Source: a plasmid. From it: a DNA stretch of 64,000 nucleotides. A program made the translations under genes and the position numbers. Positions 14,242 through 25,912 of the stretch are shown one piece after another (position 1 is the stretch's first letter; every line of letters starts with the position of its first letter). The notes beneath the pieces are model-generated. The model saw only the letters and a program-made list of their open reading frames with translations, did not search any database and was not told the origin of the DNA. The stretch lies in the sequence record NZ_CP025192.1, one strand, 5' to 3'.

Positions 14242-14644
14242 AGTTTCGTGTGGTCGAGGACTGCCGCGATGTCTGGGCGGTCCAGCCGTTGTGCCGTGTG
14301 CTGGGGATCTCGACCGCCGGCTACTACGCTTGGCGGTCGCGGCCGGATAGCAAGCGCGCCGTCGAGGATTGTGCCCTGCTGGCCGACATCCGCCAGGCCC
14401 ATGCCAACAGCGGTGGCCGTTACGGCAGTCCCCGTGTGTATGCCACCTTGCGGGCGCAGGGGCGACAGGTTGGACGTGGACGGATCGAGCGCCTGATGCG
14501 GCGGCATGGCGTGCGCGGCCTTGTCGCCCCGCACCGCCGCGTGCAAACCACCGACAGCCGCCACGCCTTCCCGGTCGCTCCCAATCTGCTGGAACGCAAG
14601 TTCTCCACCACCAGCAGGCCGAACCAAGTCTGGCTGGCAGACCT
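14169..14644 (+). pseudogene. IS3-family transposase OrfB, 5' part, interrupted by the nested IS at 14645
   Basis: MKFRVVEDCRDVWAVQPLCRVLGIS...RPNQVWLADL then breaks into IS terminal sequence. It continues in frame at 15966. Confidence 0.75.
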
Positions 14645-14683
14645 TGAACCGCCCCGGGATTGCCGGAGGCCATTGGGCTTAAA

Positions 14684-15589
14684 TTATGCGGCCATGGGAG
14701 TGCCGTCCAGCATGGCGTAGTAGCGTTCTTCGGCTTCGGCAGGTGGTATATTGCCGATGGGCGCGAGAAGCCGGCGGTTGTTGAACCAGTCCACCCATTC
14801 CAGCGTGGCGTATTCGACGGCCTCAAAGGATCGCCACGGACCACGCCGGTGGATCGCCTCGGCCTTGTAAAGGCCGTTGATCGTCTCTGCCAAAGCGTTG
14901 TCGTAGCTGTCGCCTACACTGCCCACCGATGGCTCGATCCCGGCTTCGGCAAGGCGCTCGGTATATTTGATCGAGACATACTGGCTGCCGCGGTCGCTGT
15001 GATGGATCAGGCCACCACGACGGACAGGACGCCGATCATGGATCGCCTGCTCCAGGGCATCCAGCACGAAGCTGGCATGCGCCGTCCTGCTTACCCGCCA
15101 GCCCACGATATAGCGGGCGTAGACGTCGATCACGAAGGCCACGTAGACGAACCCTGACCAAGTCGCGACATAGGTGAAGTCCGACACCCACAGCATGTTC
15201 GGCGCCGGGGCGTGGAACTGCCGGTTCACCTGGTCGAGCGGGCAAGGCGCGGCCTTGTCGCTCATCGTCGTGCGCACCGGCTTGCCGCGGATCACGCCCT
15301 GCAAGCCCAGCTCGCGCATCAGCCGCTCCACCGTACATCGGGCTATGTCGAAGCCTTCGCGCCGCATCTGTCGCCAAACCTTGCGCACGCCGTAGACGCC
15401 GAAGTTCTCGGTAAAAACCCGCATCACCTCTGGCTTCAGGGCCCGATCACGCTGGGCACGCGACGATAAGCGCGAGGGATCGCGCCGCTGCGCCAGGTGC
15501 TCATGGTAGGTGGATGGGGCGATCGGCAGAACCCGGCAGATCGGCTCGACCCCATAGTCACCGCGATACTCGTCGATGAACGCGATCAT
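14684..15589 (-). CDS. IS3-family transposase OrfB (DDE integrase core)
   Basis: 301 aa with DDE motifs HHSDRGSQY and YDNALAE. Confidence 0.85.
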
Positions 15590-15912
15590 CGCTTGAACGG
15601 GCGGTCGAGCTCCGCCTGGGCAAAATACGCAGATGCCTTGCGCAGGATCTCGTTGGCCTGGCGCAGCTCGCGGTTCTCGCGCTCCAGCGCCTTGAGCTTG
15701 TCAGCCACATCGGTGGGCACACCAGCTCGTTTGCCGCTGTTCACCTCGGCCTTCTTCACCCACTCCAGCAGCGTGTGCCCCGAACAGCCGAACTTCTCAG
15801 CAATGGATGTGATTGCGGCCCAGCGGGACGGATGGTCGCCTTCGTGATCCAGCACCATGCGGACCGCCCGTTCACGAACCTCCGGTGCAAACTTGTTCGT
15901 CGTCTTGCTCAT
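15586..15912 (-). CDS. IS3-family transposase OrfA
   Basis: 108 aa. HTH plus leucine zipper. [29 protein letters not shown]. Confidence 0.85.
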
Positions 15913-16957: not shown

Positions 16958-16982
16958 GATCACTCGTATGAGTGCTCGGAGC
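16941..16982. repeat. 42-bp perfect palindrome (19-bp arms GCTCCGAGCACTCATACGA, 4-bp spacer TCAC)
   Basis: Read directly. The arms are exact reverse complements. Both strands therefore encode MSARS going outward. Confidence 0.9.
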
Positions 16983-17079
16983 CGTGCTCTCCACCTTGTC
17001 TCCGTCCACCGAACGCCCCCTCACCAGGAGAGCAAACCTCGGAGGCTCAGCCAGGACCCTCAACCATGGGGTTCAGCCG

Positions 17080-17436
17080 ACGGATACCGCCGAGGCGCTG
17101 CATGCCTATATCCAGACTGCCGGGATCGCTGACGACCGCAGGGGCTGGCTGTTCCGCACAGCGCCAGGCCACAAGGCAACCGAGCTCACCAATCAGCCGC
17201 TGGCCCAGGCTGACGCGTGGCGCATGTTGCGCCGCCGTGCTGTCGCCGCCGGCATCACAGCGCCGATCGGCAACCACACCTTCCGCGCGACCAGCATCAC
17301 CGCCTATCTCGCGAACGGCGGTGCTCTTGAGCATGCGCAGGAAATGGCAGCGCATGAGAGCCCGCGCACCACCAAGCTCTACAACCGCACCAAGGAGCGG
17401 CTGACGCAGGACGAGGTAGAGCGGATCAGACTGTGA
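17080..17436 (+). pseudogene. tyrosine recombinase (phage-integrase family) C-terminal catalytic fragment
   Basis: HTFRATSITAYLANGG...ESPRTTKLYNRT contains the HxxR and Y catalytic residues. No N-terminal domain upstream. Confidence 0.65.
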
Positions 17437-17474
17437 TGCGTCTCGATTCTCGTACTATTCACCATAAGGAGACC

Positions 17475-18164
17475 TCAAGCAGATTTCAGGTACTTTCGTC
17501 CACTTAGGGCGCTGTATATCTCACCTTGCATGAAAGCCATGATGGCTAAAGTCGTCGCGAGATAGTCAGATAACGCCTGATCGCTTGGGATCAACAATCT
17601 GTCGCCATGCGAAATCGCGTTCCTAATACCCAATAACTTGCTGATATTCGAACGGTGGACTTCGATAGAAAGGCAATCTAGTCCGAGTTGAAAAAGCAAT
17701 TTTTTAAGAACATCCGGCGACAAGTTGGATTTTGTGTCAACTACCTGATCCGGAATATCCACTTTATGCGCCGTAATTCTCTCATAAGACTCAACAAACA
17801 TCTGCTCGCGAGCTGATAGGTGCAATTGTGTGTCGTCCGGCATGCGATTGCGAAAAGTTTCGTGTTTGCTATTCGGGTCCCTTAACGCGGCAAAAACCTT
17901 ATGCAGAGTGGCAGCTGCAACTGGATAGCTAGCCTCGGCACAGGTCAACCCTAAAGCATTGAGCGCCGATGTATAGGAGAGAAGAGAAAATTTACAAAAT
18001 CCTTCAAGATGCGCGTACATTAGCAGAATGAGCGAGCGTTTAAGCATCGCCTGCTCATTTGCGGATGCTGCCGCCTGGATTAAGCGGTCTATCAGACGCA
18101 TTTCAGCCTCGCGACTGGCTCGGTCAGCTTCCAGGTCCTCAAAAACAGACTCAGGGGAACGCAT
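17475..18164 (-). CDS. HEPN-domain protein (Rx4H motif RNAISH), putative RNase/effector
   Basis: 229 aa, all-alpha composition, C-terminal R-N-A-I-S-H-G-D HEPN motif. Overlaps the DUF262 gene by 14 bp. Lower GC than its surroundings. Confidence 0.65.
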   Translation of the reverse strand: MRSPESVFEDLEADRASREAEMRLIDRLIQAAASANEQAMLKRSLILLMYAHLEGFCKFSLLSYTSALNALGLTCAEASYPVAAATLHKVFAALRDPNSKHETFRNRMPDDTQLHLSAREQMFVESYERITAHKVDIPDQVVDTKSNLSPDVLKKLLFQLGLDCLSIEVHRSNISKLLGIRNAISHGDRLLIPSDQALSDYLATTLAIMAFMQGEIYSALSGRKYLKSA

Positions 18165-19287
18165 GGATGAGCCGTTGCCTTACAAAATTGATCCGATCAT
18201 TCAGCGGGCCAGGCGAGTTTTTCCCACCGCCAGTTGTTTGTCTGACAAATTCGCTGTCAAGCTTAATGCTTTTAAGGCAGTCAGCAATGGCGGCCATTAC
18301 GACGTGGTCTGTCGGGTCAAGTTTGTCGATGACGCTCTGAAGAGCAACTGTAATTGCCTCGAAATGGTACACACTGAAGCCCGACGCCAGATCGGTTCCA
18401 CTCTTATTCCTGAATGCAAAGGACTTGTCGCCTAGAGAGGCCTTCAAAACCGCAAAGGTCTTGCGAAAGTTGGCTTCCTCTCCAGCAAAGTCAAAACTGT
18501 GTGCGCGGCTTGGATCGGCGACGTCCTCCATATACTCTGTCAGAAAATCAGATACTTCGTGTTTGAATTTATCCAGCCGATTCTTGAGCGCGAAAAATCT
18601 TAAGACCAGTTCCTGATCGATCCCTGAAAGAAGCCGCGCCTCCGTCAAGGCGCTTGTGCAGACCTGAAAATCATCAACCCCGCTCATATTGATGATGAAA
18701 TCGGGAAACTCAGTACTGAGCATGCGAATTGTGCAATTACGAATCTGCTGCTCCGACAGGCCTTCTCCGCCTGTGTTAAGCCGCTTGAACATGTGATATT
18801 TGAAATGCGGATCAGCGCCCCTGCGAACAACCTCCACTCGAATGAATGCGCGCTTCAACCTGATCTGCATGGAGGTTGGCAGATCGTCAAAGGTGAGATC
18901 GTTCAGCGCGTGCACGATGTCACAATCTACAAGTTTCAGCTTGTCGCCCTTTTGAACAGGACGATCGAGATGAGGGGCGTCCAACGCGCCTCGTAAATGC
19001 AAGTAGGATGAAATCCGTTGCAGTCCGTCGATCAGCTGATAGCGGCCTTCCTCCTCCTCGATTACAAAGATCGGCGGCACAGGCATTTCTAGAATCAGCG
19101 ACTCTATGAGACGCGAACGCTGTCCTTCGGTCCACCTAAAGAGCCTCTGATAGTCCGGGGTGATGTTGAGCTCGCCTGCCTCGGCCATGTCGAGAAGTTC
19201 ATTGAAAGAAAGATCAAGTGCCTGAGTGCTGGCGCGTTTTAGCGTTCCCGCGACCTCCTCGATAAGGCGCGCGCTTGAGCCTGACAT
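18151..19287 (-). CDS. DUF262 (ParB/Srx-like nuclease or NTPase domain) protein
   Basis: N-terminal ITPDYQRLFRW...ILEMPVPPIFV and QLIDGLQRISS, the DGQQR-type motif diagnostic of DUF262 (GmrS/DndB-like). Confidence 0.8.
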   Translation of the reverse strand: MSGSSARLIEEVAGTLKRASTQALDLSFNELLDMAEAGELNITPDYQRLFRWTEGQRSRLIESLILEMPVPPIFVIEEEEGRYQLIDGLQRISSYLHLRGALDAPHLDRPVQKGDKLKLVDCDIVHALNDLTFDDLPTSMQIRLKRAFIRVEVVRRGADPHFKYHMFKRLNTGGEGLSEQQIRNCTIRMLSTEFPDFIINMSGVDDFQVCTSALTEARLLSGIDQELVLRFFALKNRLDKFKHEVSDFLTEYMEDVADPSRAHSFDFAGEEANFRKTFAVLKASLGDKSFAFRNKSGTDLASGFSVYHFEAITVALQSVIDKLDPTDHVVMAAIADCLKSIKLDSEFVRQTTGGGKNSPGPLNDRINFVRQRLIHAFP

Positions 19288-19289
19288 CG

Positions 19290-20591
19290 CTAACGATCTC
19301 CACGTTGAAAACAGAGGACGGACTCAACTGTTCCGAGCCTGTTTGTGCGACCTGTAGCATGCGGATGAATCGCCGCCATAGTTCGATGCACTGTAAAATC
19401 TTCTCGTCGCATTAACTGCAGGTTCCGACTGGCTGCCATCTCTACCAGAACGGCAGGAAGATTATTGTGAATGTCTTTGTAGTGCGAATCCTGTACTACA
19501 AAAATCGCTGCTGCACCGTCCTTAAGAACACTGGAAATCCTGGAGATAGACCGGCTCATTTTATCGAAGTAGTCGAGATGCGTCTTTAAGTAATATCCTG
19601 CAGATGACTTGGACGGGTGAAGTCTAACTTTTTCTAAGAAGTCGCGGCAGGTGGTGCCCCACTGGTTATCGTATTCGATAGGTTGCGATGGGACGCGAGT
19701 TGAACCAATCATCCGCCGGCCAAGGGCATGCACATCCGACCGAATAAGGCCATTCAATACAGCCAATTCAATCTGAGTGGCCACTGCGTAGTCTATCCGA
19801 GTGCAGTAAGGTGGTGAAGTGAGCACAAAATCTACTGTCGCCTCCCCCGCGAAAAACGAAGTGCTATCTGCTAGTCGAGCTTCTGCGAAGGTGCATTTCA
19901 GAGGATGATCGTCTGCACACTTTGAAAGCGCTTCTGCCATGCCTCTAATCTGGGATAAAAAGGTGCTCCGCAGCTCGTCATCGCGGACATGAACGAGCTC
20001 CTCGGCAGATTTCGCCCTACGCCACCATGTCGGATTGGAAGATCGGAAGGTGACGGACGCACTTCGTGCCACAGCAAATAGTGCGACGTAGAAGGCTGAA
20101 GCGATGCTTGATAGACGATCAAGATCAGCGCCCCGTTCCGATATTGTGAACCGACCCACGAGGCTGCTTGAAATCGCCTGCTCGATTGCACGGACATGGC
20201 GCGCCGTCTCGTGATCGAACCAACTCAGCAGAGGATCATCCGCCGGAAGAGTCACTGGAACATCGCAATGATCAATTAGCTTCTGACCAAGTGGCTCAAG
20301 GCTGTCTGCTTCGCTTGGAGGTAGAAGCCTTGCTCGCGCAACAGCAATCATAACCGGATTGAGATCGAGACCAATCCCAAGGTGACCGTGATTCCGAGCT
20401 GCATAAATTGTTGTCCCGCTTCCGTTCCACGGATCCAGGACAACAGCACGTGGCGCTAGGCGTGCAGAGCTGATTATGTCGGAAGCAAAAGCCTCCGGAT
20501 AACCGGCGTAGTAGGGAAAAAACCCCTCCCATCCAACTTGTAGGCGCCGATTTCGCTTGGGAGACGGGATTGCGAGACTGTCGAACATCAT
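19290..20591 (-). CDS. DNA methyltransferase (amino-MTase, N6-adenine or N4-cytosine)
   Basis: Motif I DPWNGSGTT near the N-terminus and motif IV TSPPY near residue 265. 433 aa. Its stop is 3 bp from the DUF262 start. Confidence 0.8.
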   Translation of the reverse strand: MMFDSLAIPSPKRNRRLQVGWEGFFPYYAGYPEAFASDIISSARLAPRAVVLDPWNGSGTTIYAARNHGHLGIGLDLNPVMIAVARARLLPPSEADSLEPLGQKLIDHCDVPVTLPADDPLLSWFDHETARHVRAIEQAISSSLVGRFTISERGADLDRLSSIASAFYVALFAVARSASVTFRSSNPTWWRRAKSAEELVHVRDDELRSTFLSQIRGMAEALSKCADDHPLKCTFAEARLADSTSFFAGEATVDFVLTSPPYCTRIDYAVATQIELAVLNGLIRSDVHALGRRMIGSTRVPSQPIEYDNQWGTTCRDFLEKVRLHPSKSSAGYYLKTHLDYFDKMSRSISRISSVLKDGAAAIFVVQDSHYKDIHNNLPAVLVEMAASRNLQLMRREDFTVHRTMAAIHPHATGRTNRLGTVESVLCFQRGDR

Positions 20592-20643
20592 GTCTGCGCA
20601 GTCTGTAGGAGGTACGCAGGGGTCAAGTCTGCCTTGCTCTCCA

Positions 20644-20961
20644 TCATGCGACCGTTGTCAGCCCGTTCTTGGCGACGAGCGAGAGAAGCTTAAGGGACGG
20701 GCCTTGCGGGCGCTTCTCGCCGCGCTCCCACTGGCTGACGAGGCCCGTCGTGACGTTGAGATAGCGCGCGAACACGGCTTGGCTGGCCCCTTCCCGTTCA
20801 CGGAGAGCACGGATTTCTTCAGGTGTGAGCGGGCGCACGGGCGTCAGGCAGGCGTCGTCGAACTGGCGCATGGTCTGCTTGTCCATGAGCCCGGCATTGT
20901 GGAGGCCCTCGGCGGTCTCGTGGATCGAGGCCATGGCCCTGCTGCGATACTGCTTACTCAT
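20644..20961 (-). CDS. XRE-family HTH antitoxin
   Basis: 105 aa. HTH LTPEEIRALREREGASQAVFARYLNVTTGLVSQWERGEK. Overlaps the upstream toxin gene by 8 bp. Confidence 0.75.
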   Translation of the reverse strand: MSKQYRSRAMASIHETAEGLHNAGLMDKQTMRQFDDACLTPVRPLTPEEIRALREREGASQAVFARYLNVTTGLVSQWERGEKRPQGPSLKLLSLVAKNGLTTVA

Positions 20962-21328
20962 CCTCCGTTACCTCCGTCAGCACGCCGGCGCCGATCGCTG
21001 TCGCGAGCGCCGCATCGTCATAAGCCAGCAACTGCGCCGCCAGCAGCTTGAAAGCGGCCAGCTCGTCATCGCGGATGTTGTCCTGCTCGTTCTTGGCGAA
21101 GCCATGCACGAAGAAGGACCGCTCCCCAACCCGGAAGAGGATGATCGTGCGGAACCCGCCCGACTTCCCTGCTCCCTCGCGGGCAATGCGCTGCTTGATG
21201 ACCCCGCCGCCCAGATCGGCGTCGATCAGTCCCCGCCCTGCCCTGCCGACCGCCTCGCGCAACGCCGCGTCGCTCAACCGCGCCTTCCTGGCGAACCGCG
21301 CAAACGGCTTGTTCTTGAATATCCTCAC
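20954..21328 (-). CDS. RelE/ParE-superfamily toxin (HigB-like, toxin-first arrangement)
   Basis: 124 aa. KSGGFRTIILFRVGERSFFVHGFAKNE is typical of this RelE-fold toxin family. Confidence 0.7.
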   Translation of the reverse strand: MRIFKNKPFARFARKARLSDAALREAVGRAGRGLIDADLGGGVIKQRIAREGAGKSGGFRTIILFRVGERSFFVHGFAKNEQDNIRDDELAAFKLLAAQLLAYDDAALATAIGAGVLTEVTEDE

Positions 21329-21654
21329 CTGCCCTCACCAACAGCCGCCGCGAGGTCATCCAAAAATTACTATAGCACTTAGTGCTATAAAATGCAAGGC
21401 GGGCGTCCCCCCTACCCTTGGGCCGCCAGACGGGGCCAGGCTGTGCCATAATGGCGGCTGAACCCGGTGTCGGGCGGGCTCAAGGCCTGCCCGGCCGTCT
21501 GCCAGAGGGCCGATGTGCAACCGCTGCGCTGACCGCCTCCCGCTTGAACTCCTCCGTCCAGCCCCGCTGACGTGGATCTCCCATCGCGCCCTCCAAGTCA
21601 TCATGACCTTACCTGAGCGCTCTCCACTTCTCCCGGGAAAGTCCAAGGAGGGGC

Positions 21655-21908
21655 TGTCCTGGACTCCTGCGGGGCAGTCCAGTGGCCCTGGACTCTTGCG
21701 GGACCCGAGTCGTCGGTCTCTCGGAGACATGGCGGAGCCTCGTCCACAGGGCAAACCTGGGCTTTTGCGGGTATCCCCAGGATTCATGCGGGATACCCTC
21801 GTGTAGAAATCAATGACTTATGAAGTTATCTACTGGGTTCCTGCGGGGCATAACTAATAGAGTTTCTAATAATCTTCAAATAGCTCGTCCCGCAGAAGTC
21901 CAGGTGGA
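21655..21908. repeat. iteron array (five direct and one inverted copy of a roughly 17-bp repeat, consensus near CTGGAYTCNTGCGGGRY) plus an AT-rich stretch: candidate oriV
   Basis: Copies at about 21657, 21688, 21758, 21780, 21834 and inverted at 21889. One more inverted copy lies after repA at about 22944-22962. AT-rich segment at 21805-21880. Confidence 0.6.
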
Positions 21909-21950: not shown

Positions 21951-22934
21951 ATGGCATCTGTGGAGGACGAGGCGATGGGGACAGTCCATCGACTCATTGA
22001 GGAGCACGGGCGGCAAGGGGCATTGAAAATGGCTCCAACCGACGGAGACCGCCGCGCCATCGAGGCCGCCATCCAGTACATGGCCGACGAGGACGCCGGG
22101 ATCGGCTTCCTCTACAGCGGTTGGTGCCAAGCCGCCCTACCCCACAAGAAGCTCGCTGACGATGCGGCCTGGAAGATCGAGACCGACCGGGTCGCGCTCA
22201 TCGTCGAGCCAGGGCGTCGCAACATCCCCGGTGGAGGCATAGAATGGGTCGGCGCACCTTACGGCTCGCGAGCCCGCCTCATCTTGCTGTTTCTACAGAG
22301 CGAGGCGCTCCGGACCAATTCCCGCGACATCGAACTCGGGAGAAGCCTACACATGTGGCTCGGGCGCCTCGGGATCCCGATCGGCGGCAAGAGCTTCAAG
22401 GACGTCCGGGAACAGGCCGAGCGCCTCTCTAGGTGCCGGATGACCTTCCACATCATCGCAGGCGACCGGGCTGGGCTGGTCAACCAGAACATTGTAGACA
22501 CTGCGATGTTCGTGCAGGAACCGTCGGCCGAGGGCCAGGGTTCCCTGTTTGTCGAAACAGCGCGCCTCTCGGAGACCTTTTTCGAGCAACTCAGGAAGCA
22601 CCCGGTGCCCCTAGAAGAGTCGGCGATACGGGCGATCTCAAATAACTCGCAAGCTCTCGACATCTACTGCTGGCTCGCATACCGGCTCCACGTTCTTCCG
22701 CCCGGGAGGCCGGTCTCGGTGTCCTGGCGGGCACTGTTCGGGCAGTTCGGGGCCTCCTACAAGCGCATCGATCACTGGAAAGAGCGCTTCGTGGACAGCC
22801 TGAAGATCGCGACTGCGGTCTACCCACACGCAAGCATCGAAGTGGCACCCGAGGGCCTCGTGTTGCGCCAGTCCCGCCCGCCGGTGGCGCCTCGCCTCGT
22901 CTCTGGCGGATCTCCCGCAAGAGCCCAAGGATAA
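21951..22934 (+). CDS. repA: plasmid replication initiator RepA (RPA family)
   Basis: 327-aa protein similar to alphaproteobacterial plasmid replication initiator protein A. Preceded and followed by iterons. Start could be at 21975 instead. Confidence 0.65.
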   Translation: MASVEDEAMGTVHRLIEEHGRQGALKMAPTDGDRRAIEAAIQYMADEDAGIGFLYSGWCQAALPHKKLADDAAWKIETDRVALIVEPGRRNIPGGGIEWVGAPYGSRARLILLFLQSEALRTNSRDIELGRSLHMWLGRLGIPIGGKSFKDVREQAERLSRCRMTFHIIAGDRAGLVNQNIVDTAMFVQEPSAEGQGSLFVETARLSETFFEQLRKHPVPLEESAIRAISNNSQALDIYCWLAYRLHVLPPGRPVSVSWRALFGQFGASYKRIDHWKERFVDSLKIATAVYPHASIEVAPEGLVLRQSRPPVAPRLVSGGSPARAQG

Positions 22935-23391: not shown

Positions 23392-24644
23392 ATGCTGGTC
23401 GTGGAGACAGTGGCAAAGATCCGGCGCCTGCACCGGGTGCAGGGCAAGTCGATCAAGGCGATCTGTCGTGAGCTCGGGATTTCGCGAAAGGTGGTCCGGA
23501 AGGTTCTGCGGTCCGGGGAGACGGAATTCCGCTACAGCCGGGCGCGGCAGCCGCAGCCCAAGCTGGGGCCGTGGCAGGCCGAGCTGGAGCGCCTGCTGGA
23601 GGCGAACGAGGCGCGGCCGCGGCGCGAGCGGCTGACGCTGGTGCGGGTCTACGAGACGCTGCGTGAGCTGGGGTACGAGGGCGGCTACGACGCGGTCCGG
23701 CGACATGCGCGGGGGTGGCAGGCGTCACGGGCGACGGCGGTGGCAGCAGCCTTCGTGCCGCTGAGCTTCGCGCCGGGCGAGGCATACCAGTTCGATTGGA
23801 GCCACGAGGTCGTGCTGATCGGCGGCACGACAGTGACCGTCAAAGTCGCGCATGTGAGGCTGTGCCACAGCCGGATGCTGTTCGTCCGCGCTTATCCGCG
23901 CGAGACGCAAGAGATGGTGTTTGACGCTCATGACCGGGCGTTCGCCTTCTTTCGCGGTACCTGCACGCGGGGCATCTACGACAACATGCGCACGGCGGTG
24001 GACGCGATCCTGGTGGGACGGGATCGCGCCTACAACCGGCGTTTCCTGCGCATGTGCAGCCACTACCTGGTCGAGCCGGTGGCCTGCACTCCGGCCTCGG
24101 GCTGGGAGAAAGGTCAGGTCGAGAACCAGGTCGGGCTGGTGCGGGAGCGGTTCTTTACGCCGCGGCTGCGGGTGAGGAGTTACGAGGAGCTGAACGCCCT
24201 CCTGCTGGAGCGGTGCGTGTCCCATGCCCGGGCCAATCGGCATCCGGAGCAGAGGGAGCGGACCGTCTGGGAGGCGTTCGAGGCAGAGCGGCCAAGCCTG
24301 GTGCCTTACGCTGGGCGGTTCGACGGGTTCCATGCCGTGCCTGCCGCGGTATCCAAGACCTGCCTGGTGCGGTTCGACAACAACAAGTACTCGGTGATGG
24401 CGAGCGCGGTGGGGCGGCCGGTCGAGATCCGGGCCTATGCCGAGCGGATCGAGTTGCGCCAGGACGGCCGGGTGGTGGGCGAGCACCGGCGCGTGTTCGG
24501 CCGGGACCAGACGGTGTTCGACCCCTGGCACTACGTGCCCGTGCTGGCGCGCAAACCTGGAGCGCTGCGCAACGGGGCACCGTTCAAGGACTGGCTGCTC
24601 CCCAGTGCACTGGAACGGGTCCGCCGCAAGCTGGCCACAGCCAC
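23392..24644 (+). pseudogene. istA: IS21-family transposase IstA, 5' part
   Basis: HTH plus DDE core (FDWSHEV...). The frame is broken at 24645 by the IS3 insertion and resumes at 25980. Confidence 0.8.
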
Positions 24645-24683
24645 TGAACCGCCCCGGGTATGCCGGAGGCTGATTGGTTTGGG

Positions 24684-25586
24684 TTAGGCTGCCAGGGCGG
24701 GCTCCTCAAGCCTGGCGTAGTAGCGCGCCTCTGCTTCGGCCGGTGGCATGTTGCCGATCGGCTCGAGGAGGCGGCGGTGGTTGAACCAGTCGACCCACTC
24801 GAGGGTGGCATATTCGACGGCCTCGAGGGATCGCCACGGGCCACGGCGCCGGATGACCTCGGTCTTGAACAGGCCGATGACGGTCTCGGCGAGGGCGTTG
24901 TCGTAGCTGTCGCCGACGCTGCCGACCGAGGGCTCGATCCCGGCCTCGAGCAGGCGTTCCGTGTACCGAATGCTGAGGTACTGCCCACCCCTGTCGCTAT
25001 GATGGGTCAGGCCGCCCTTCGCCGGGCGGCGGTCATGCAGGGCTTGTTCCAGGGCATCGAGGACAAAGCCCGCATGCGCCGTCCGCGAGACCCGCCAGCC
25101 GACGATGCGGCGGGCGAAGACGTCGATGACGAAGGCGGCATAGACGAAGCCCTGCCAGGTCGCGACGTAGGTGAAGTCCGACACCCACAGCATGTCCGGT
25201 CGCGGCGCCCGGAACTGGCGGTTCACCTTGTCCGCCGGGCAGGGCGTGGCCTTGTCGGCGATCGTGGTCCTGACCTCCTTGCCGCGGACGACGCCGCGCA
25301 GGCCCATGCTCCGCATCAGGCGTTCCACCGTGCAGCGGGCCACCGCGATGCCCTCCCGGCCGAGCTGCCGCCAGACCTTGCGGGCGCCGTAGACCCCGAA
25401 GTTGGCCGCATGCACCTGCCGGATCCCCTCCATGAGCACCAGGTCCTGCCGGGCGCGCGGCGAGGTCTTGGCCGGATCACCACGCCGGGCAACATGGGCG
25501 TGGTAGGTCGACGGCGCGATCGGCAGCACCCTGCAGATCGGCTCGACACCGTAGACCCCGCGGTGATCGTCGATGAAGGCGATCAT
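24684..25586 (-). CDS. IS3-family transposase OrfB
   Basis: 300 aa. DDE motifs HHSDRGGQY and YDNALAE. Confidence 0.85.
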
Positions 25587-25912
25587 GGCTTCGAGCGGCG
25601 GTCGAGCTCCGCCACCGCGAAATAGGCCGACGCCTTGCGCAGGATCTCATTGGCCTGGCGCAGCTCGCGAACCTCGCGTTCCAGAGCCTTGATCCGCTCC
25701 CCCTCCGCACTCGTCGGCCCAGGCCGCAGGCCCCGGTCGCGCTCAGCCTGCCTTACCCAGCCGCGCAGAGTCTCCGTCGTGCAGCCGATCTTGGCCGCGA
25801 TCGAGCCGATCGCCGCCCACTGCGAGGCGTGGTCGCCTCCGTGCTCCAGCACCATCCGCACCGCCCGTTCCCGGACCTCAGGCGAATACCGGTTCGACGT
25901 CTTCTTCGTCAT
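25583..25912 (-). CDS. IS3-family transposase OrfA
   Basis: 109 aa. HTH plus leucine zipper. Confidence 0.85.

Follow-up and report, generated by a model that had tools for sequence, protein, structure and literature searches.

A three-gene unit on a Roseomonas mucosa plasmid

The question raised by the locus described here is whether three tightly packed genes on a plasmid of Roseomonas mucosa (sequence record NZ_CP025192.1), which encode a DNA amino-methyltransferase (MTase), a DUF262/ParB-like protein and a HEPN protein, constitute a single immunity system, and whether this combination has been encountered before. Judged by its sequence features, the triad, which is located in the 64,000-nucleotide (nt) stretch of this plasmid that was analysed (the window), is an intact member of the MAE_28990 HEPN/ParB/methylase class noted in 2013, and is as such a real, ordinary member of a predicted, experimentally uncharacterised system. 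The three genes are tentatively read, with somewhat less than even confidence, as one mobile immunity module resembling restriction-modification (R-M) systems, in which the MTase would supply a self mark while the DUF262 protein would act as sensor and the HEPN protein as effector. The three genes and the block of low GC content that they occupy are as follows:

19290-20591, minus strand: DNA amino-methyltransferase (MTase), 433 amino acids (aa), Pfam N6_N4_Mtase
18151-19287, minus strand: DUF262/ParB-like protein, 378 aa, Pfam GmrSD_N (DUF262)
17475-18164, minus strand: HEPN protein of the MAE_28990 / RiboL-PSP family, 229 aa, Pfam HEPN
17475-20600, no strand: low-GC block in the GC profile, of the same extent as the three genes

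The three open reading frames (ORFs) lie end to end and form a unit of 3,117 bp (~3.1 kb). Together with the Pfam matches they bear out the operon of three packed minus-strand genes, and the domain assignments, put forward in an initial annotation of this DNA, and the motifs DPWNGSGTT, TSPPY, DGLQR and RNAISH cited in that annotation are all present. The 14-nt overlap between the DUF262 and HEPN genes is likewise as annotated, while the distance from the MTase stop to the DUF262 start is 2 nt and not the 3 claimed. The current RefSeq labels of the three products are ‘DNA methyltransferase’, ‘DUF262 domain-containing protein’ and ‘MAE_28990/MAE_18760 family HEPN-like nuclease’. GC content over positions 17500-20500 is 0.46-0.55 as compared to 0.63-0.72 in the flanks, and on this compositional ground the block is a mark of a horizontally acquired unit, in agreement with the low-GC island of the initial annotation. 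A promoter and terminator scan of positions 17200-21700 returned sites no more numerous than in shuffled sequence.

Domain content of the three proteins

The MTase matches Pfam N6_N4_Mtase (PF01555, 1.4e-11) as well as 42 PADLOC models, nearly all of which are named MTase_II (best 2.1e-16). Its motif I (residues 53-61) precedes motif IV (SPPYCTRIDY, residues 259-268) by ~200 aa, and the locus thus contains the amino-methyltransferase with motifs I and IV that is expected of a type II R-M system. The SPPY form of motif IV is commoner in N4-cytosine than in N6-adenine enzymes. Both motifs are invariant among 26 homologues, as are the blocks DxNP (76-79) and SNPTW (185-189), whereas conservation is poor over residues 91-165 and 196-255, where target recognition may reside.

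The DUF262 protein is composed of a GmrSD_N domain (PF03235, 5.4e-24; ~residues 30-186) and, in its AlphaFold model, an all-helical C-terminal domain of the ‘ParBDB’ type (~190-378). The three DUF262 motifs as defined in PMC12065111, i.e., QRxxxW (Q47 R48 W52), DGxQR (D87 G88 Q90 R91, the DGLQR sequence at residues 87-91) and FxxxN (F167 N171), are invariant among homologues. The model is of moderate quality (pLDDT 72.8), with a confident C-terminal half and a poor N-terminal domain, and for this reason its fold matches in the PDB are weak, with BrxU at the top (E 0.014, prob 0.94) followed by ParB CTPases, and with zero matches at E<=0.001. No nuclease domain could be detected in this protein: PF03235 is its only Pfam match, DUF1524/HNH being absent, and its C-terminal half is helical in the model. 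Among PADLOC models it matches NsnA (1.3e-54, nearly full length) and PD-T4-2_A (PDLC04027; 5.1e-35, residues 29-367 against profile positions 41-355 of 363), the latter score being generic for proteins with DUF262 plus a helical domain, as it ranges from 1e-31 to 1e-38 in all relatives tested. The DUF262 protein is also the most conserved of the three, with a mean column identity of 76% as compared to 59% for the MTase.

No PD-(D/E)xK, HNH or GIY-YIG domain was detected by Pfam in the proteins of the locus. The sole trace of a restriction endonuclease is a weak match to a PADLOC REase_II model, and it falls on the DUF262 domain itself: PDLC03418, named ‘Type II restriction enzyme’, matches residues 39-185 of the DUF262 protein at 1e-07, and matches relatives at up to 1.8e-13. 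Since this model matches a DUF262 domain, some catalogued type II restriction enzymes are DUF262 proteins, which were presumably named after their methylase neighbours.

The HEPN protein matches the Pfam families HEPN_RiboL-PSP (1.9e-24) and HEPN_MAE_28990 (2.6e-24) and is thus a member of the MAE_28990 (PF18737) family; the Rx4-6H motif typical of this family is intact in it, in the form Rx4H (R181-N-A-I-S-H186). The HEPN fold is confirmed by a confident structure model, whose closest folds are the HepT toxins of HEPN-MNT toxin-antitoxin systems. As the only nuclease-type domain in the operon, this protein is predicted to be the effector and to act as an RNase. The PADLOC check proposed in the initial annotation gave a split result, with the NsnA, PD-T4-2_A and type II MTase models on one side and, on the other, no match of the HEPN protein to any PADLOC v2 model at E<=0.01, nor even at E<=10. 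PADLOC v2 would not call the triad, because of the DUF262-HEPN pair only the DUF262 protein is matched.

Alignments of homologues show conserved catalytic motifs for each of the three proteins, and a sequence search of the PDB identified no solved structure as a relative of any of them. A HMMER search of 1.84 billion cluster representatives, counted in 50%-identity clusters, retrieved 1,940 relatives of the HEPN protein at E<=1e-3, 971 at E<=1e-10 and 170 at E<=1e-30.

Conservation of the triad

When the HEPN protein was used as bait against reference contigs representing one genome per species, 50 loci were obtained, of which 43 possessed enough upstream sequence to be assessable. The order MTase, DUF262, HEPN on one strand was observed in 33 of these 43 loci, in which the MTase orthologue directly upstream of DUF262 exhibits 38-63% identity to that of the window (phmmer 1e-57 to 1e-149), and in 19 of the 33 triads the DUF262 and HEPN genes share a 4-nt ATGA start/stop overlap, translational coupling being the usual state. 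In Bradyrhizobium brasilense, gene calls that were made independently and carry precomputed Pfam assignments show the triad as well. The conserved linkage to an MTase, on which the initial annotation had made its proposal depend, is thus borne out. The triads are spread over about ten phyla and an archaeon, with hosts among the Alpha- and Gammaproteobacteria, Bacteroidota, Cyanobacteria, Acidobacteriota, Bacillota, Planctomycetota, Abditibacteriota (Abditibacterium), Desulfobacterota and Binatia. Because the same families, order and orientation recur in such a proportion of loci from unrelated genomes, the arrangement is far beyond chance.

The pairwise identities of MTase, DUF262 and HEPN proteins are correlated (r = 0.72-0.82), which is consistent with the three proteins having been inherited and transferred as one unit. 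Furthermore, 31 of 32 other triad loci are richer in AT than the DNA on either side, the mean difference amounting to -10.3 GC points. Conservation does not extend upstream of the MTase: of the 173 ORF clusters obtained there from 84 loci, 160 are singletons, and the RelE/HTH toxin-antitoxin pair that precedes the MTase in the window has no match upstream of the MTase in these 84 loci; the unit therefore starts at the MTase. Most of the triads found are chromosomal, on contigs of hundreds of kb to Mb, and a relative is present in only 7 plasmid records of PLSDB. Viral contigs returned only two weak matches, so the triad is not typically phage-borne.

Alternative cassettes associated with the MTase

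The MTase was used as bait in a second survey, of 80 metagenomic loci with orthologues of 38-54% identity, 73 of which were assessable. The 80 loci are distributed as follows:

15 loci: MTase, DUF262 and MAE_28990 HEPN
18 loci: MTase, divergent DUF262 (PF03235 1e-17 to 1e-20) and a ~215-aa Rx4H protein
7 loci: MTase, weakly SIR2-like protein and DUF262
10 loci: MTase and DUF262, with the third gene cut off or different
18 loci: MTase and an unrelated four-gene cassette, one only partial at a contig end
7 loci: contig ends too soon after the MTase
5 loci: other

A DUF262 partner is thus present in 50 of the 73 assessable loci, and the third gene varies (it is cut off or different in 10 of the 50). 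As DUF262 stays while the third gene differs, being a HEPN, an Rx4H or a SIR2-like protein, the survey suggests that a single, dedicated modification enzyme is combined with a DUF262 sensor that remains constant and with effectors that can be exchanged. A wider generalisation, i.e., a modular superfamily in which this MTase subfamily would set the ‘self’ mark, DUF262 would read it and an exchangeable suicide or arrest effector would replace DNA cleavage, is possible but must be considered doubtful. It would amount to R-M logic with an abortive-infection output, a class not yet demonstrated experimentally.

The ~215-aa proteins belong to no Pfam or PADLOC family and possess an invariant R[NH]F[FY][AS]H (Rx4H) motif. 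In an hhalign comparison with the MAE_28990 HEPN alignment only this motif was aligned, without significance, and it is on the basis of the motif that they are probably an unrecognised HEPN family. Examples are found at L101:3005-4687, L104:5267-6972 and L110:6387-8077, in L115 and L117 and in 13 more loci, with divergent DUF262 proteins of 344-358 aa. The SIR2-like variant (L055:3332-5457, L057 and L060; also L114, L119, L126 and L129) has the order MTase, SIR2-like protein, DUF262, the latter of 341 aa. Its 367-aa SIR2-like protein, which matches PADLOC SIR2 at 1.2e-06 and Pfam SIR2_2 at 0.0028, below the cut-off, takes the HEPN slot and is a possible NADase.

The four-gene cassette (e.g., L069:6400-11141, L077, L093, L095, L097 and L071) looks like a separate, undescribed methylase-linked system. 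It encodes proteins of ~286, 369, 477 and 451 aa, only the last of which has a Pfam match (AAA_12/AAA_19 helicase), and none of which has a meaningful match in PADLOC. The same cassette is present in a Burkholderia pseudomallei chromosome (OZ241753.1, 728230-739600; L138), beside an integrase and an AAA_16 ATPase. In 16 of the 80 loci (e.g., L062:2758-4955 and L069:4364-4960) an Xre/MbcA/ParS-type antitoxin and RES toxin pair lies directly upstream of the MTase and is co-directional with it, mostly together with the four-gene cassette; the window has its RelE/HTH pair in the equivalent position.

Relation to previously described systems

The initial annotation did not recognise the combination of three genes as a known one. 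It had, however, been noted in 2013, RefSeq names the HEPN family, and DUF262 plus HEPN is the architecture of the PD-T4-2 system. Table 1 of Anantharaman, Makarova, Burroughs, Koonin and Aravind (2013, Biol Direct 8:15) lists the MAE_28990 HEPN in an operon with ParB and a DNA methylase, while RiboL-PSP-HEPN is entered there as ‘operon with ParB’ and the partner is called a ‘ParB nuclease’. The window triad corresponds to this operon in its HEPN family (PF18737/PF18735), in its adjacent, co-directional and overlapping ParB/DUF262 partner and in its adjacent methylase with conserved linkage, and there is no architectural difference. The two accounts differ in that the table entry is a single line of comparative genomics, which gives no experiments, defence-system name or specific mechanism. 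A full-text search of the literature retrieved no later paper naming or studying the triad, or the mechanism of PD-T4-2.

Anantharaman et al. (2013) proposed in general that HEPN RNases linked to R-M systems represent a second line of defence, and the triad may accordingly be viewed as a two-tier R-M system, in which DUF262 would be a DNase acting on unmethylated DNA, the MTase its cognate methylase and HEPN a PrrC-like back-up, silenced by the R-M proteins and freed only once restriction has been disabled by a phage. HEPN genes in R-M operons have been interpreted in this way in print, and the term ‘ParB nuclease’ in Table 1, the match of PDLC03418 to the DUF262 domain and the conserved MTase linkage are in keeping with it. 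However, the DUF262 domain is described in the literature as an NTPase sensor in GmrSD and SspE, and in GmrSD, BrxU and SspE cleavage resides in DUF1524, which is absent from the window protein; the swapping of the third gene while DUF262 stays fits an ‘effector’ better than a ‘back-up’, and MTase-less dyads exist. A two-tier system is therefore considered an unlikely explanation. The window operon shares with GmrSD, BrxU and SspE the N-terminal DUF262 domain with its DGxQR NTP-binding motif, BrxU being the best but weak structural match, and differs from them in lacking the DUF1524 His-Me/HNH nuclease, in having a HEPN protein (RNase-type) in trans and in the attached methyltransferase. With PrrC-EcoprrI, an analogy that the 2013 paper itself uses, the window operon has in common a HEPN RNase coupled genetically to a DNA modification/restriction unit; yet PrrC has its own ABC-type NTPase domain and is linked to HsdMSR, whereas the NTPase of the window operon is a separate ParB-like protein, next to which the only sign of a restriction endonuclease is the weak REase_II match on its DUF262 domain.

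PD-T4-2 is described as ‘DUF262, HEPN’, with two coding sequences within 1,540 bp of E. coli ECOR65, and protects E. coli from T4, both natively and when transferred to K-12 (Vassallo et al. 2022); its HEPN is listed in a review as PF18735. It was compared with the window through its PADLOC models and through a P2-like coliphage pair (L134) as proxies. In both systems DUF262 and HEPN are separate proteins encoded in this order, and the PD-T4-2_A model matches the window DUF262 protein nearly end-to-end, albeit with a weaker score than NsnA. PD-T4-2 differs in consisting of two genes without a methylase, as opposed to three genes with a conserved MTase, and the PD-T4-2_B model fails on the window HEPN protein, even at E<=10. 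None of the HEPN partners of the related dyads or of the coliphage pair matches PD-T4-2_B.

The coliphage pair is located at the genome end of Peduovirus P24B2, adjoining gene A (NC_049387.1 30104-31979; L134:140-2015). Its DUF262 protein of 381 aa displays 28% identity to that of the window over the full length, and the second gene, which follows it, encodes a 239-aa protein with an RNDLAHG motif. In PADLOC the first protein is assigned to NsnA/PD-T4-2_A and the second has no match, so that PADLOC v2 would miss this PD-T4-2-like pair. An Enterobacter plasmid hit (H18) considered as a further pair of this kind was rejected, as it is a solo HEPN.

The best PADLOC match of the DUF262 protein, NsnA, is a component of Menshen (NsnA-NsnB-NsnC), which shares with the window the layout of ParB-DUF262 plus a helical ParBDB domain as well as frequent linkage to a methylase and polymorphism of the effector, the latter described for Menshen in PMC12065111. 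Menshen requires the NsnB ATPase and the NsnC effector according to the same account, whereas the locus has neither an NsnB ATPase nor an inPIN-containing NsnC, the next gene being that of the 229-aa HEPN protein, followed by a convergent integrase fragment. Membership of Menshen was therefore rejected.

Loci without the MTase

Ten of the 43 assessable HEPN-baited loci do not possess the orthologous MTase. Two of these are degraded (L010 and L049), one (L016) has a different, beta-class N6_N4 MTase, and the remaining seven are intact DUF262-HEPN dyads, three of which (L020, L034 and L035) have housekeeping neighbours and no methylase within ~5 kb. In a tree of DUF262 proteins, L016, L020, L034 with L035, and L045 form four lineages that are scattered inside the triad clade, which implies that the MTase was repeatedly lost or replaced, while L046, L048 and L050 form an outgroup. 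Since intact dyads occur without a methylase, the DUF262-HEPN pair is not lethal without a linked MTase.

These dyads bear on a further explanation, namely that DUF262 senses foreign modified DNA (as GmrSD does), or another phage cue, in the manner of type IV restriction and activates HEPN, the MTase being an accessory passenger and not the determinant of self and non-self; it might, e.g., protect the mobile element against restriction by other systems, or tune background binding. Apart from the scattered dyads themselves, such sensing would agree with the selection of PD-T4-2, which has no MTase, on T4, whose DNA is hypermodified, and with the high conservation of DUF262 irrespective of MTase divergence. 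A passenger would not, however, stay in the same place and on the same strand, almost without a gap, in 33 of 43 loci across phyla, nor co-diverge with its partners to the extent seen, and the constancy of the MTase subfamily in at least four cassette types is the behaviour of a dedicated modification subunit. Sensing of the type IV kind with a passenger MTase is accordingly judged unlikely. The modification-dependent self/non-self logic of the initial annotation is plausible, but not, as was claimed there, implied by the gene content, given the dyads and PD-T4-2 without a methylase.

A related dyad of DUF262 and MAE_28990 HEPN is encoded directly after repM on the Psychrobacter cryohalolentis plasmid NZ_CP022042.2 (L132:3878-8076), back-to-back with a BsuBI/PstI-type restriction enzyme and an Eco57I-like methylase, and is thus another pair beside a replication gene and an R-M system.

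Proposed mechanism

In the reading favoured here, that of a single R-M-like immunity module, the MTase would, as its family suggests, methylate a cognate target and thereby mark the host's own DNA. The DUF262 protein, with its ParB-like NTPase and helical DNA-binding domain, would by homology act as a DNA sensor or switch, as in GmrSD, BrxU and SspE, and HEPN would be made in fixed proportion to it through translational coupling; the two proteins are presumed to form a complex. Upon meeting DNA in the ‘wrong’ modification state, which would most simply be DNA without the cognate methylation, DUF262 may undergo an NTP-driven change that releases or activates the HEPN RNase. Cellular and/or phage RNA, its presumed substrate, would then be cut and translation stopped, which would abort the infection or the establishment of foreign DNA. 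Gene order and coupling, domain identities, motif integrity, co-divergence, mobility and the exchange of effectors are observed, and the biochemical steps are deduced; the protection conferred by PD-T4-2 and the sensor role of DUF262 in GmrSD and SspE speak for this reading.

Several points weigh against this mechanism. The strongest is the existence of intact methylase-free dyads inside the triad clade, as well as of PD-T4-2, with which unmethylated DNA as the trigger is hard to reconcile unless there is a methylase active in trans. The DUF262 protein is much more conserved than the MTase, unlike what would be expected of a protein that tracks changing MTase specificities. Moreover, the HEPN protein matches no PADLOC model, the ~215-aa proteins are assigned to HEPN by their motif and not by a significant hhalign result, and the mechanism suggested for MTase-bearing members is inferential throughout.

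Plasmid setting and neighbouring genes

The features surrounding the triad are as follows:

16972-17436, plus strand: C-terminal fragment of a tyrosine recombinase, 154 aa, convergent, downstream of HEPN (Phage_integrase 3.1e-12)
20644-20961, minus strand: HTH protein (antitoxin partner), upstream of the MTase (Pfam HTH_3 1.3e-07)
20954-21328, minus strand: RelE-type toxin, upstream of the MTase (Pfam RelE PF06296 2.4e-47)
21951-22934: RepA_C replication protein

The initial annotation had regarded the integrase fragment and the RelE/HTH pair as bounding the island, but they are incidental neighbours, as the upstream flank is not conserved in the 84 loci mentioned above. The RelE and HTH genes have a host-like GC content of 0.63-0.65 and lie outside the low-GC block, and on this ground, together with their lack of a counterpart in those loci, they were rejected as fourth and fifth components. 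The recombinase fragment covers profile positions 74-169 of 172 of Phage_integrase. It is a C-terminal remnant of host-like GC content, its end being separated by 38 bp from the stop codon of HEPN; it is therefore probably the trace of a former insertion boundary, and activity as an integrase is unlikely.

The position of the triad 1.3 kb from RepA, adjoining a RelE toxin-antitoxin pair, invites the view that it is an addiction module, in which HEPN would be the toxin and DUF262, with or without the MTase, the antidote, so that post-segregational stabilisation would be the main function and phage defence a secondary one. The HepT toxins as closest folds of the HEPN protein, the related dyad beside RepM on the Psychrobacter plasmid and the AT-rich, mobile nature of the triad would fit this view. 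However, the triads are mostly chromosomal, with few relatives in PLSDB, the related PD-T4-2 confers phage defence, and no MNT-type antitoxin is present, the partner of the HEPN protein being DUF262, in spite of the resemblance of its fold to HepT. An addiction function is thus regarded as very improbable.

Segment 17000-22000 recurs with 100% identity on two plasmids of Roseomonas mucosa (NZ_CP025063.1 and CP099475.1) and is absent from the other Roseomonas plasmids compared. Two related IS3-family elements are located at 14638-15912 and 24638-25912, in the same orientation, with 74-79% nucleotide identity and a start-to-start distance of exactly 10,000 bp. They enclose the integrase fragment, the triad, the RelE/HTH pair, RepA and a transposase-like ORF (23392-24687), and are too diverged for a recent composite transposon.

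Significance for defence systems

The HEPN family of the triad is widespread, and since it is unnamed in PADLOC v2, censuses of defence systems probably miss the triad. The pattern of an MTase hub with exchangeable effectors suggests a larger modular family. Should the proposed mechanism be correct, an epigenetic self mark would gate an RNase rather than a DNase, linking R-M with abortive infection in a compact system of three genes. It would also provide a function for the class of DUF262 proteins common to PD-T4-2 and Menshen NsnA.

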